From assembly GCA_051294375.1 (NCBI GenBank), contig CM119270.1, forward strand, positions 15,161,921 to 15,225,920: DNA of 64,000 nucleotides, given 5' to 3'. A program made the position numbers and the translations under genes. This document shows, piece by piece, positions 22,201 to 54,000 of the stretch. How positions within the stretch are numbered: the stretch's first letter is position 1; each line of letters opens with the position of its first letter. This stretch comes from Paraspadella gotoi (taxonomy: Eukaryota; Animalia; Chaetognatha). The notes beneath the pieces were generated by a model that saw only the letters and a program-made list of their open reading frames with translations, did not search any database and was not told the DNA's origin.

Positions 22201-25200
22201 GTGGTCGCGCGAACTGACCCGTCGATGTATAGGGGGACAGCATCGTGCCTGTGTGCGTGGAACAATTTTTTAAAAAAAGGCCGCCAATCTTGAATAAAGG
22301 AAAACACAAGAATTATCTCAACAACCGATGACGATAACTCACTAGCTAAATGTTTGACGGGGGAGTCCCTCACGGACTTGGAAACGGGTGGGTATGGGTG
22401 ATGCACAGTATGCTGCGTCGATCCTAAGCGGAGTCGAGAGAGATGAAAAGCAAGGAGAATATGAGGCTAGTGTGCTAATATTTATATTTATAAAAAGTAA
22501 AAAAAAACTAAATTAAAGTCTTTTGTATAGTTTTTCTTTGATACCAATACTATATCATATTCACTTACCCTGCGTCGCTACTGCAGCTGCAGCGGAAGCA
22601 GCCGCTGCTGCCCTTCTCCTCTCTGCCTCTTCCTTTTTCCTTGCGTAGTTCGATTCTGGTTTCGGCCTGAGATAAAACTTAAACGTTTAAGTGAGGTACA
22701 AAAATTGTCATTGCAAAGACAAACAATACTTATTCGCAGGTTATGAATAAGGTAATGAATAAACGTTTTGTAAAGCAAGCTTTCGACCTCTCTTTACCTA
22801 AACTCCAAGTCTGTTCTGGAGCAGGAATCCCTGGCGCCGCGAAACCAGCGCCGCAAAAAAACGGCGTTGTTCGTCCGCGCCGTCTCGGTGGCGTCCGGTC
22901 GTGGCTCAGGGGTCGGGGTTCGCGACGGCGGAGGGGGAGAGGGATCGGGGGAGCAGGCCGAAGCCTGAGAGGAGGTTTTGTGAATGGCTAAATCGTGAAC
23001 CATGAATCGCGAATATGTTTACGGTTTTAAACTCACCTTCTCGTCGAAGGACTCCAGCTTTTGAGTCGTCATCGATCCAATCATCGACATCTGCCCAATT
23101 ATACAAATGAATACAAATATTTTAATAATTTCTGCTAAAGGTAATTAACGTAAATAACTGAAACATTTAAAACGAGTCAAACGCCAAGTATCTCCTTGAC
23201 TTACGCCCGTAAAGAGTTGGGGCGGCGCGGCGGCTGTTGCCCCCTGGTGCGGCGACTGCAACGGCGAGGCGCTGCGCCGATTGATCGCCGCTCCCGGGAC
23301 GATGGCGGAGGTGGAGGGATGGCCAAGGCTGGTCGTCGAGGAGGGTAGTACGTAGCCATGAGGCGGTTGAGGTTGATGGGCCTGTTGAGATGGGTTAGTA
23401 GACGCGGGGATCCCGTGCAGAGAGTGGGGGTAGCCAGAAATCTATTGAAAGAGGATGGAAAGAAAGAATTAGTGAAATATTAATAAAGAAACTTAAGAAT
23501 TTAACCTAATACATTATCTTAAACATTAGAAAATTGGTATGACAAATATCCATTTATTGAATAAACAAGATATCTTCGCATCCTCGATAACTTGTGGAGG
23601 GTTGAGGCCTCCGTTCCTCTTACGAGATGATTAAATAGCAAGACCCTGTAAGCTTTCAATTAAGACTCACAGTCTAGTTTATTACTAAAATTTGACCTTA
23701 AACAGTTATGACTGAATTTATTTACTTCAATTTACTTAAATATTAATGTATTGTAGCGAATCCTCAATTCGCCTCCCAACCATGAGTTCCGTGTTCAATC
23801 CCCTCACGGACTCGCTGGTTAAATGTGATGGGGTCGGCATAAATACGCTTGTGACATGGGGTGGTCACGCTAGGTCCAAAGCCCTGAGCGCTGGCTGTCG
23901 GGAGATGTCTCACACACCGGTCATCACACATGTCTCCCTTTGCCATAGTATATTCTTTTATTTTTATAACGCAAAATAAAGTTTTCTGGCTCTAATTTTT
24001 TGTTTTGTCCTTGCTTTCCGCTCCTTTTCCTGCTCTTCTTTCATTTCTTACCGCCAAACCAGACTCCTGCTTGACTTGAGGACCGGTGGTTCCTTGTTCT
24101 CCTCCGTGCGCAGGTCCGAGGTGTGCATAAGGGTAGGGGTAAAGGTGTGGATATCCGTGCTGCGCCGGAGGACCTCCGGGCAAACCGGGATGATGGGGAG
24201 ATAAGAGATGAGGGTGGAGAGGATGACCTGAATATTATTAAAGGGCCGTTGAAATATATTTATAGTATATTTATGGAACAAAATATGTATTTTAAAAAAT
24301 GATAAGTTAAAAGATCATAAATAAAAGAAAAAGAGGGAAGGGAAAGAGAAGTTCAGGCATTCCCGAGAATAATGGTAGAGTCGAACACTGGACTTGCTTC
24401 GAGAATTCAAGACAAGAAAAAAAAAAAAAAAACATATGTACACAAATGAAACGCTCACCTCCGTGAAGAGGATGCACGCTGGGAGACAAAACGCTTGGCG
24501 CTTCTCCCGAAGAGGAGGATGACGACGTTGAAGTCGACCTCGGCGGTCGAAAGCCGACAGAATGATTGGCCGGAGGATTGGAGAGCGCTGGGTGCGGAGC
24601 GGTCGTCGAGGAAGGTCTGCAAGTAAGAAGATGGATTAGGGATGGGAAGGAGATACTTGGCAAACTTATCATTTAGTTCTCGATGTTCTCGCATCCAACG
24701 ACTGACCTAGAGTGATCCTTCGTCGACGACGAGGACGACGACGGAATCATGGAACCCGGAGTGGCGAGATTCGATTCCGATTTTGGTTCCACCTTCGGCT
24801 CTTCCTTTTTAATCTATAAAGTGACGGGTTTTAATTAAATTTCATTTAAATTTTTATTTTTTTATTTTTTCATTTAAATTACCCGACTAATTATAAATAC
24901 ATATAATTACGTAATATACAGAAATATTCTCAGCATGCAATGATTCTCACATTTATAGCTGGGCTCACCTCGTGATTGAGAAGGGAGGAGGCGGAATGAG
25001 GCACACTATGAGCTATCACAGCATGAGTAACGCCAAGGTGGGTCGACGATGGAAACCGATGAGGGGAGAACGCGTGGGAAGGCTGACGCACGAAAAAGTC
25101 AAAAGCACTTGATACTTATTTGTTGAAATGGAATTAAATACGAGTTTTATTAAAAAAGTTTCTCTACCTGCGGATAGGAACCGAGCGTCAAAGGCAACGA

Positions 25201-51054: not shown

Positions 51055-54000
51055 TCATAAAACTGCGTTGCTTATTTGAGGTAACTTAGTTCTAGGACTG
51101 GGCATCTCCTCGGCGCCCAACTGTTGTTGGACGCTCCTCCCGGGGGCGTCCTTGGCGCCGGCGCCTCTCAAGTCCCTGATCACGCCGGGAACGCCGGAAC
51201 CGCCGACGGCACCGCCGACGGGCGTGTGATGCTGTTGCTGCCGGTTTTCCCGGTTGTCGCCGACGACGGCAGCGGCGCCTTTGACGCCGGCTTCGGCGTT
51301 CTGCGGCGGCGGTTTGGGTAGGCGACGTCGCAGCCACGGGTGCCGCAGCGCTTGGGACGGCGTGAGGCGGGTCGAAGGCTCCCAGTCCAGACAGCGGCGC
51401 ATGAAGTCGACGAAGAGAGAATCGTCGCAGCCCTTGAGGGCCGTCACCAAGTCCTTGGATCCCGGCGGGCCACGAGCCTTGCCCCGTCGGGATCGGCCGC
51501 CGTTGAGCACCACCGTGCCGTCGGGCAGCTGGGTAACGCTGCAGTAGCGAGGGTAGCCCTTGGAGCTGATGAAGTTCTTGGCCCGCTTCGACTGCTCCAG
51601 CAGCTTTTGAGGGGGAAGGCCGAGGAGCTCGACCACGAGGGCCAGTTGATCCGACTCGTCCTCGCCGGGGAATATGGGGTAACCTGGGAGTGAGGAAAGG
51701 GTGGACGAGTGAGGAAAAGGAAGGGGTTAAAGTATTAGGCGTATGGTGGACTAATATCCACCAACCGCACGGCCATTGGTGCAGGAGGCAAGTCATTCGT
51801 CATGGGTTCTAGCCCGGTGGTCGCCTAGCAGTTAAGAGGGACGGGGCGCTTAACCCGGCTGTAACATGGTGTTACAGCCTGATCCGAAGCTGAGGTACTG
51901 CCTATATTGAACGGTTCTGTCACTAACACAACAATAATTCCCGTCTCTTCAGGCGTGGGAAAAGGGGGGGGGAAGAGAAGAGGGTAGTGAAAGGAGGGAA
52001 GAGGAAGAAAAGATAAACATGCTTAGGATTAAAAGTGTCTTGGAAAATAATAGGAGTTATTTCGTCCCTATTTTTCAGTTATTATAATTACAGGCAGAAA
52101 AATCGATAGATTTTATTTGTTTACAAACAACGATTTATTCAAAATATGAAAAAATACGAACTTGTTTCGGCTCAAATTTACGAGCGTTCATCAGCGCGAA
52201 GTAGATTGTTTTAAATAAATCGTTGTTTGTAAACAAATAAAAATGTTTTCCTATTTTTCTTCGTCTCAAATGCAACGGAAGAAAGTAAAAAACACTGTCA
52301 GTATAATTGTTAAGTTATTAATCGCTAAACCGTACCATGAGAAAAAAAAAAAAAAAACTAAAATGACAGCGACCTGAGAGAGGCTCTATGAATTAATACT
52401 AAATCCTTCATAAAACATAAAAATAGAAAATAGTGAAACAAGTAATTTGCAAATTTTCATTTCAATTTCGTTAAGATAATAAAAATAATCTATCTCCTTG
52501 TCCTCTCCCGGACAAAAGACTTCCTCCCTCCCTCGGTCAATCATCTACGCAAAGAAATCGACGAAATTTTAATTCTTTCAATTTTCGAACGGACGCTCGC
52601 ATTTGGAAAACTGGTTTTTTTAGGAGAGCGAGACGAAACGTAACACATGATCTTTGAATAAAAAAAAAAATACAGCGGCGCATGTTTTAAACGAATTTGT
52701 AAATAAATAATAATCATTTAATAAGCGTTAGAGTCGCTTATTTCTGGCAATAATACTGTAAGTTCCCCTACGTGAGATTACATATTGTCATCCGTAATTA
52801 CAATCGAACTCTTCGGGGAAACGATCTTTTTTTTAATCAGTCCCCACTGTATTCGTTAAAGAACCGGATTGGGAAAAAAAAAATTGTTCTTGACTTTCGT
52901 CGCGAACGTTCTGTTTCGTCATTGAACTTCGACTTAATTGCTCATGTCAACACAACTATCTTTTTTAATACTCAGTTTTAGAATACCATAAGCCATTAAA
53001 CATATATTAAATCGCGACAAACGAATCGTCGCAATCGCATAAGAAAAAATCTGGATTGACGACAAATTTTGATACTAAAAATATAATTTGAGAAAGAAAA
53101 TTAATTTATAAACAGAAAAAAAAAGAAGAAAAGAATAAAATATAAAGAATAAATAAGGAAATAAAAGAATAGAAGGAAAGAAAGAATAGAAAGGAAATAA
53201 AGAATAGAAAGGAAAGAAAGAATAGAAAGGAAGAAAGAATAGAAAGGAAAGAAAGAAAGAATAGAAAGGAAAGAAAGAAAGAATAGAAAGGAAAGAAAGA
53301 AAGAATAGAAAGGAAGAAAAAGAATCGAAAGAAAAGAAAGAATCGAAAGGAAAGAAAGAAGAATAGAAAGGAAAGAAAGAAAGAAAGGAAGAGAAGAAAG
53401 AAAGAAAGAATAGAAAAGAAAGAAGAATAGAAAGAAGAAAGAATAAAAAAGGAAAGAAAGAATAGAAAGGAAAGAGAGAATAGAAAGGAAAAAAAGAAAT
53501 AGAAAGGAAAAAAAGATGAAAGGAAAAAGAATAGAAAGAAAAAAAGAATAGAAAGGAAAGAAAGAAAAAATAAAAATAAAGAGTGACGAGAAGAAAGAAC
53601 GAAATAAAAATCCTATGTTGCGATAGCAAAATGATAACATGCACGAATGCGAAGCCTAATTTTACGAGTTCAATCCTAATTCAATTTTTAAAAAAATAAA
53701 ATCGCAGAGAGAGAGAGAGAGAATCAGCAGACGAATCAGACGAATCAGCGGACGAATCAGCAGGAGAAAAGAGAGAAAAAGAAAGCCCCTGCAGAGCCCA
53801 AGGAATCAGCGACTGGGGAAAAGAGAGAGAGAGAGAGCTACATATAATTAGAAGAGAAAAGAGAGAGAGAAGGAGACATAAAAATAAAAATAGAGGAAAT
53901 TTGTTTGTTTTGATAAAACGTAAACAAAACATATTCAATAACTGTCCTCACCCAATTTCAAGGACCTCGATGATGAGAAGCTGTATATAAATTTTAGGCG

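Follow-up and report, generated by a model that had tools for sequence, protein, structure and literature searches.

A type P5 twister fold whose P1 is a palindrome, in three high-copy repeat families of Paraspadella gotoi

Why should the fold of a self-cleaving ribozyme recur among dispersed animal repeats that do not match each other in sequence? The question is raised by a 64,000-nucleotide (nt) stretch of the chaetognath Paraspadella gotoi (assembly GCA_051294375.1, contig CM119270.1, positions 15,161,921 to 15,225,920, forward strand; hereafter the window). An earlier note, made from the letters of the window alone, had described in it five copies of a short interspersed element (SINE)-like repeat built around a permuted twister ribozyme with a palindromic P1. 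We followed up this description with sequence comparisons, fold predictions and the majority sequences of the repeat families, taken from read-derived contigs of public sequencing runs of the same organism placed on two stretches of the window. Published work is cited here from excerpts of the articles named.

The twister motifs and their base pairs

Four motifs stand on the plus strand at the positions and in the order that the note had given, as checked on the sequence, with a motif descriptor and with lists of pairs. They belong to three families, A, B (copies B1 and B2) and D, and share the strand order P5, UAA, P2', GA, T1, a short P1, U/AA (the slash marks the predicted cut), P2, T2, an optional P3, P4, L4, P4' and P5'. 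The motifs, together with a fifth, decayed copy (E), are located as follows.

23814-23895, plus strand: family A twister; P5 of 5 base pairs (bp), P2 of 4 bp, P3 of 7 bp, P4 of 4 bp, P1 palindrome at 23832-23839
30022-30207, plus strand: family B copy B1, twister at 30092-30154; 96% identical to B2, with 10 nt more at the 5' side
45423-45485, plus strand: intact family B twister, in copy B2; P5 of 7 bp, P2 of 3 bp with a bulged A at 45434, no P3
51826-51903, plus strand: family D twister; bulged 3-bp P2, P1 palindrome at 51845-51850, P3 of 7 bp, P4 of 5 bp
23538-23683, minus strand: copy E, decayed and family B-like; 73-75% identical to B1 and B2 by BLASTN, palindrome kept, G to A at 23615, L4 and P4 broken

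B1 and B2 share 96% identity over 180 nt (BLASTN and alignment), and families A and D match neither B nor each other by BLASTN. A model built from the sequences of the five cores alone detected no sixth copy in the 64-kb window. The decayed fifth copy does exist as a relative of family B, and it occupies the minus strand, which the earlier description had not recognised. The T1 pairs (UGG:CCA or CGG:CCG), the T2 pairs (GC:GC or AC:GU), the family-specific P5 and the P3 helix, found in families A and D and absent from family B, are all as that description had them, whereas the bulged P2 holds for families B and D (3 bp plus bulge) and not for family A, in which P2 has 4 bp and no bulge.

The general-base G lies at 23827 (A), 30106 (B1), 45437 (B2) and 51840 (D), and the predicted cuts fall between 23840 and 23841 (A), 30117 and 30118 (B1), 45448 and 45449 (B2), and 51851 and 51852 (D). 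A, B1, B2 and D all retain this G, the U/AA cut site and the adenines of L4; in E the G is replaced by A and the U by C, which in the alignment takes the -1 position. B2 is the only intact copy of the window, with T1 at 45439-45441, the P1 palindrome at 45442-45447, T2 at 45454-45455 and P4 at 45461-45464/45473-45476. In B1 the letters at the P4/L4 junction are swapped, the D copy carries two substitutions that break pairs (51858 and 51892), and the A copy differs from its family majority by ten pair-breaking substitutions. Watson-Crick pairs form both the 3-bp pseudoknot T1 and the 2-bp pseudoknot T2 in B2, in the A copy and in the D majority.

Evidence that the fold has been maintained comes from the family majorities. 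All ten majority differences inside the family A motif (23823, 23832, 23844, 23849, 23850, 23869, 23870, 23871, 23892 and 23893, with lower depth at 23823, 4,700, and 23832, 8,800) turn a mismatch or a G-U pair into a Watson-Crick pair, and the majority has a 4-bp P2, a 7-bp P3, a 4-bp P4, a 5-bp P5 and a self-complementary 8-nt P1. Among the 40 of 100 rows listed, family D shows three majority differences in the motif: one restores T2 (51858), one restores P4 (51892) and one falls in an unpaired linker (51896); at each of the three, the majority letter reaches at least 97% in runs from three studies. Over the A and D cores, 12 of the 13 listed majority differences thus make Watson-Crick pairs from mismatches or wobbles. 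Between the family majorities, pairs are switched on both sides once in P2 (A-U versus C-G), once in T1 (U-A versus C-G), once in T2 (G-C versus A-U), at two positions of P3 and at no fewer than two of P4, and P5 is unrelated in sequence among the families and paired in each. The covariation that the earlier note had predicted across copies is therefore clearly present, both within and between families. All three majorities keep the general-base G, both A residues that follow the cut, and the adenines of L4; a change at these residues lowers or abolishes cleavage, according to the part of PMC11662667 that reports on about 1,950 natural twisters. On the sequence, the type P5 twister fold with a palindrome for P1 is real and common to families A, B and D, and it has very probably been under selection in all three.

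The palindromic P1 described earlier is borne out in all three families. In each, the nucleotides lying between T1 and the predicted cut are self-complementary, with a different sequence each time (45442-45447, 51845-51850 and 23832-23839); copy E retains the family B palindrome, and one contig carries a further, different 6-nt palindrome. Given a closing pair, a random 6-mer would be self-complementary throughout with a probability of 0.14 per family, and the families are related, which makes the product of these values only indicative. Within one molecule, at most 1-2 bp of a P1 stem can close. For the isolated P1 pieces no hairpin is predicted and the self-duplex is placed at -8.3 to -9.1 kcal/mol, and in the predicted homodimer of B2 the P1 pairs form between the strands with a probability of 1.00, while P4 forms with 0.99 versus 0.07 in the monomer.

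The descriptor was written after the elements had been seen, and 30 shuffled windows served as its chance baseline. B2 matches it without mismatch and A with one, against 0.03 such matches per shuffled window in either class; B1 and D belong to the two-mismatch class, in which chance yields 2.2 matches per window versus seven real ones, five of these being AT-rich non-elements. The primary pattern occurs at 34 loci elsewhere (30 in metagenome and 4 in viral contigs). P2 and P4 pair together in none of the 34, and a single locus had four P4 pairs; the metagenome and viral scans returned chance matches only and no relatives.

Copy number, ends and heads of the elements

The extent of the elements around the twisters, with the fragment that belongs to family B, is given below.

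23765-23940, plus strand: family A element, 5'-truncated and diverged, made of head remnant, twister and tail; limits from the rise in depth and from loose ends
23765-23812, plus strand: family A head remnant, 3' part; anticodon-loop-like 23774-23780, B-box-like 23793-23801
23896-23940, plus strand: tail of family A, containing a hairpin of 9 bp that does not exceed shuffles (z -0.08); contig loose ends give the 3' end
45362-45539, plus strand: family B copy B2, 5'-truncated and near-consensus; limits from depth and loose ends
51771-51825, plus strand: family D head, resembling a transfer RNA (tRNA); about 17-20 nt deleted near 51800, B-box-like 51806-51814
51904-51937, plus strand: family D tail, 3' end approximate, read from the sequence; one joint at 51930, the depth bins leaving the boundary unresolved
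8581-8608, minus strand: family B 3'-tail fragment of 28 nt, 93% identical to 45511-45538 (E 3e-6)

The high copy number supposed in the earlier note is confirmed for all three families by contig depth and loose ends. Summed contig depth is not a copy number, and the count of contigs with loose ends gives the firmer lower bound. In the DNA run X2, depth reaches 1.1-1.4 million per bin over B2, compared with 67-111 for single-copy contigs, and 0.2-0.8 million per bin over family D; over family A it rises from about 90-180 to 13,000-218,000 across 23765-23935. Behind 45537-45539, 663 contigs have unlike, AT-rich loose ends (agreement 0.39-0.42), which indicates that the 3' end of family B is fixed and that the family occupies at least several hundred insertion sites. 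For family A, 38 contigs have loose ends behind 23938.

The 5' ends, on the other side, are variable, as seen in truncated family B copies and in the tail-only fragment at 8581-8608. B2 is considered 5'-truncated because 183 contigs extend 5' of 45362 with a common consensus; the 10 extra nt of B1 agree with the loose-end consensus of the family, whose 5' part reaches beyond every copy of the window. All five window copies are single insertions. No target-site duplication (TSD) was found in any of the four copies searched, bar one 5-nt match in a TA repeat, and the element sequences have no poly(A) tail. The depth of family A is 86,000 on the 5' side of the cut versus 97,000 just 3' of it, and this lack of a step gives no sign of copies that start at the cut. 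In run X9, which resembles RNA, the depth over the elements can be accounted for by intronic background multiplied by copy number.

Families A and D have the same layout of head, twister and a tail of 35-45 nt, and the heads were read by the tRNA layout and the B-box consensus. In family A the B-box pattern is matched exactly at 23793, a pattern that by itself is no commoner than chance (18 occurrences against 21 expected). For family D, contig loose ends 5' of 51804 supply the approximately 20 nt lost from the window copy, an anticodon-arm-like piece, and 15 of these nt recur unchanged at 23767-23781 of the A copy. Counted from 51771, the restored head is about 72 nt long; six of the seven positions at its ends pair, two of them as G-U (counted by eye), and an anticodon-loop-like stretch precedes a B-box-like one, in the order of a tRNA. 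Depth of about 2,000 at 51769 and of 190,000 at 51799 fits a 5' end of family D near 51771. The heads of A and D are thus likely to be tRNA-derived, whereas family B has neither a B-box match nor a head in its visible part. The SINE label of the earlier note consequently suits A and D, although their heads had been missed, and is not established for B.

As seen, the elements are short (under about 200 nt), non-coding and dispersed. A and D have no long open frame. In B2 an open frame of 46 codons (45362-45499) runs through the twister; searched as a short query against 1.84 billion proteins, Pfam and the ESM Atlas, it matched nothing, and the differences between B2 and E in the twister part are spread over the codon positions as 9/4/9, with no third-position bias. 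Given the missing protein match and codon bias, a coding explanation for family B was rejected. Upstream of the D head, the 30 nt at 51741-51770 include a small hairpin and are repeated to a moderate degree, with a depth of about 2,000 at 51768-51769. In three contigs they adjoin a 3' end of family B; they are possibly a leader or a PLE-like extension (PLE, Penelope-like element).

The earlier note had called the copies intronic. Splice signals agree with this for A, E, B2 and D, and for B1 an intronic context is only probable. A and E both lie inside the intron 23442-24051 of one large minus-strand gene, and a 1944-nt contig of run X9 stops at the DYRK2 exon edge at 51686. All four copies that have kept the general-base G run antisense to minus-strand host genes (for B1 with the above reservation); the single sense copy is E (23538-23683), whose core is broken. 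Such a strand pattern arises by chance in 1 of 16 cases and is only a hint of selection against sense insertions.

Runs of other organisms gave little. X10 and X13 have no contigs on either A or E, an outcome that does not prove absence. X12 yields one 294-nt contig of depth 4 that is identical over the 116 nt 45362-45477 and otherwise short divergent matches only; such identity could reflect either carry-over or recent transfer. Small shares of the B2 region are also present in marine and biofilm metagenome runs.

Naiad twisters and a proposed gating of cleavage by pairing

The earlier note had alluded to twisters of retrotransposons lacking long terminal repeats (non-LTR). By structure, the nearest relatives that we found are instead P5 twisters near the 3' ends of Naiad PLEs. 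Five Naiad 3' ends in the supplement of PMC8557442 (parts 10 and 22 of 59) were parsed by eye, and the remaining 57 parts were string-searched. Four of the five contain a P5 twister, each with T2 AC:GU as in family B and with palindromes for P1. In the three of these from part 22, P2 is of 3 bp and its second base is bulged, as in families B and D; two ends have exactly the P4 of family B, and the part-10 end lacks P3, again like family B. The excerpted text of PMC8557442 describes Naiads as often 5'-truncated, favouring TA repeats and having neither discernible TSDs nor canonical hammerheads; it makes no mention of the P5 twister with two palindromes in four of the consensus 3' ends. The window elements resemble Naiads in the 3'-end P5 twister and in the lack of a clear TSD. 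They differ in that Naiads are 3.4-4.4 kb long and encode an endonuclease-reverse transcriptase (EN-RT), while the window elements are short and non-coding, A and D with tRNA-like heads. No EN-RT coding was found in them (the B frame is unmatched, and A and D are frameless), as expected of non-autonomous elements. A Naiad-type origin or partner appears fairly likely.

We propose that the elements are non-autonomous retroposons in which a tRNA-like head for RNA polymerase III (Pol III), in A and D, is combined with a Naiad-type ribozyme 3' end, and in which cleavage is gated by pairing; we hold this explanation with slightly less conviction than its negation. The Pol III-like head would drive transcription of A and D, the body and tail would derive from a Naiad-type 3' end, and a Naiad-type reverse transcriptase would copy the elements; family B would be the third family of this kind or else a longer element's truncated end. 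In a lone transcript the normal P1 hairpin could not close, and the RNA would mostly escape cutting and be copied in full. Pairing via the palindrome, between two transcripts or within a tandem insertion, could complete P1 in trans and lead to a cut between U and A, so that the head would be separated from the tail. A ribozyme located behind the Pol III head of a SINE is expected to cut the promoter off and truncate the 5' end (PMC5786205); set beside the absence of a depth step at the cut, this makes pairing-gated cutting the simplest reconciliation. We infer the gating logic by analogy with hammerheads of PLEs with a palindromic helix III, which are weak as monomers and active as pairs (PMC4209133, PMC7229834). 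The ribozyme would on balance be catalytically active in some form, whereas clear enhancement of cleavage by dimerisation is a more doubtful proposition, and the full picture, of tRNA-headed SINEs that parasitise Naiads with a working dimer-gated twister body as a concentration-sensing switch, is rather unlikely.

A number of results weigh against this explanation. The Rfam Twister-P5 model (RF02684) scores B2 at 25.8 bits (E 0.32), below its gathering score of 37.6, and the other four of the five copies have no twister match (A and D none at E up to 10); the absence of a significant match was among the outcomes that the earlier note had itself counted as refuting. Compared with the P5 twister consensus (PMC5408937), families B and D depart by their 3-bp P2, and D has A-U where the G-C pair closing P4 is nearly invariant. 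Monomer folding energies are not above those of shuffles (z -1.1, -1.3 and +1.5), and monomer folding does not recover the twister, as expected of pseudoknot-free folding; all fold predictions exclude pseudoknots. Two-strand prediction for the mutated A and D copies gives no dimer fold like that of B2, and P1 is dispensable in studied twisters (PMC5408937, PMC11662667), so monomers may cut anyway. As for the Naiad link, an autonomous Naiad was not met with in this genome, for which no genome-wide search was made; the Naiad twisters hold two palindromes versus one in the window families, T1 differs in the Naiad ends and has a mismatch in one, the tails do not match by eye, and the exact L1 and L4 motifs of the window have no match in twister context in the Naiad supplement. 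Partial-tandem and inverted joints are too few to serve as PLE hallmarks: of 333 joints, the 15 listed include one partial tandem, in 2 contigs, and one inversion, in 3 contigs, and the window copies show neither. Finally, ARAGORN reports zero tRNA genes, and Rfam no tRNA match in the damaged A and D heads.

The same observations may be read in other ways. Monomers could cut efficiently, the nick being re-ligated by the host tRNA ligase or crossed by a template jump. Such cutting would agree with a dispensable P1 and with the tolerance of imperfect P1, P2 and P4 elsewhere (PMC11662667, PMC5408937); P5, P2 and T1 hold both fragments, the P5 topology keeps the products paired, and tRNA ligase circularises hammerhead-cut retrozyme RNA (PMC7229834). 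The antisense placement of the copies with the general-base G, the sense copy being broken, points weakly the same way (1 in 16). Still, a P1 that is palindromic with a different sequence in three families (0.14 for each) is left unexplained, and no excess of copies starting at the cut is seen among the rows listed; we regard monomer cutting as unlikely. Slightly less likely still is that the fold is kept but catalytically silent, as a reverse transcriptase binding site or a stabilising domain of the SINE body. The expected 5' truncation by a ribozyme downstream of a SINE head (PMC5786205), set beside copies that retain their heads, speaks for silence, as do the shortened P2, the UAA rather than UAAA linker and the sub-threshold Rfam scores. 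It is countered by catalytic residues that stay conserved while at least seven base pairs changed between the families, and by the activity of about 94% of the natural twisters tested in PMC11662667, a set drawn from type P1 candidates and look-alikes. Chance resemblance in unrelated repeats is already close to refuted: the lack of a significant Rfam match, folding energies no better than shuffles and a descriptor fitted afterwards would allow it, and 12 of 13 corrections that restore pairs, the compensatory changes between families and the 0 of 34 pattern loci that pair alike leave it almost no probability.

Two further alternatives concern descent. For family B only, the copies may be 5'-truncated 3' ends of a longer, possibly autonomous PLE and no SINE at all. 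The 183 contigs that continue 5' of the window copies, the lack of a visible B-box, a P4 and T2 identical to those of published Naiad ends and the 46-codon frame through the motif favour this; the frame, however, is unmatched in protein databases (a short query), its differences fall as 9/4/9, and the window copies begin within about 10 nt of each other. We consider such an origin of family B a serious possibility, if the less probable one. Alternatively, the SINEs might be mobilised by a long interspersed element (LINE), their body stemming from an RTE-type 5' twister as in Perere-3 of Schistosoma. RTE 5' ends do carry twisters (PMC8501958, PMC7761336) and RTE 5' untranslated regions do contribute SINE bodies (PMC5786205), but the RTE motifs are of type P1, cut at the 5' end and flanked by a TSD, whereas here the type is P5, the cut internal and a TSD absent, which renders this origin improbable.

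Known systems and the setting in the window

P5 twisters, retrotransposon twisters (PMC8501958) and ribozyme-bearing tRNA-derived SINEs (PMC2770079) are already known. With the type P5 twister (RF02684; PMC5408937) the window motifs share the strand order, the L1 and L4 residues, both pseudoknots, P2, P4 and the optional P3. They differ in having a 6-8-nt palindrome where the Rfam consensus has a P1 of 3 bp plus 14 nt, in the bulged 3-bp P2 of B and D, in scores below the gathering level and in their place in a eukaryotic high-copy repeat. The closest published analogue is the Sm-alpha SINEs of Schistosoma (PMC2770079), tRNA-derived high-copy retroposons with a self-cleaving ribozyme, which is a hammerhead there and a predicted permuted twister here, spread over three families whose tails differ. 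Hammerheads with a palindromic helix III (PMC4209133, PMC7229834, PMC6765202, bioRxiv 10.64898/2026.07.22.740005) likewise place a palindrome in the helix beside the cut; in the excerpts of these articles a second copy is proposed or shown to be necessary, and PLEs have non-autonomous derivatives. Non-LTR retrozymes (PMC4209133, PMC7229834, PMC6765202) form tandem arrays with hammerheads, while the window copies are single and have a twister fold. A retrozyme proper, tandem and rolling-circle with a type I hammerhead per unit, was rejected because the copies are single insertions with a twister fold. The T-variant twisters of Perere-3 (PMC8501958) are also animal retrotransposon twisters with a weak P1, but of type P1, at the 5' end by the TSD and in an autonomous LINE. 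The V/Vhc, CORE, MESC and Snail SINEs (PMC4758252) resemble the window families in sharing a middle domain between exchanged heads and tails; the excerpted text of PMC4758252 does not propose that these domains contain a ribozyme. The V/Vhc domain was rejected as a candidate since the Vhc sequences examined lack the motif (PMC4758252), and the L4 motif has no twister context in four of the five supplement files of that article. Within the open-licence PMC and bioRxiv literature, to which the search was confined (Repbase, Dfam and subscription journals fell outside its scope), no twister-bearing SINE, palindromic-P1 twister or PLE twister was found described.

The predicted twister offers a concrete candidate function for a shared SINE middle domain, whose role has been unresolved so far (PMC4758252, PMC5786205), and runs counter to the expectation that a ribozyme behind a SINE head truncates the element (PMC5786205). 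If the explanation is true, the design in which a palindrome stands in for a helix extends from hammerheads to twisters. The Naiad 3' ends suggest that Naiads use twisters where other PLEs use hammerheads, and should a Naiad protein mobilise A and D, these SINEs would owe their mobility to a reverse transcriptase related to telomerase. At 63 nt, the motif of B2 would be a very compact natural P5 twister missed by Rfam, and thousands of genomic variants constitute a natural mutational scan.

The window itself is characterised by short introns and many microsatellites. Identified genes are the minus-strand exons of a DYRK2-like kinase, minus-strand exons of a cwo-like bHLH protein and the plus-strand TMEM249. 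Pieces of DYRK2 and cwo find their closest named matches in molluscs, arthropods and other invertebrates to about the same extent, which on its own would point to an invertebrate, probably a marine one. TMEM249 is a long open frame at 12804-13712 (plus strand) of the TMEM249 (CatSper auxiliary subunit) family, with a single relative found, 44% identical. A large minus-strand gene at 17080-29050 has low-complexity RE-repeat exons, with no Pfam match in the three exons tested; the gene is reminiscent of atrophin/AUTS2-type proteins. Other repeats include an element at 37038-37969 that resembles miniature inverted-repeat transposable elements (MITEs), with 204-nt terminal inverted repeats of 97% identity and a relative at 35559-35689, and a near-perfect palindromic, MITE-like element of 129 nt at 43214-43342. 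A further high-copy repeat (depth 40,000-445,000 per bin) occupies 49442-50510, and its left end matches 16518-16581. Assembly gaps are located at 3394-3711 and 43882-43891.

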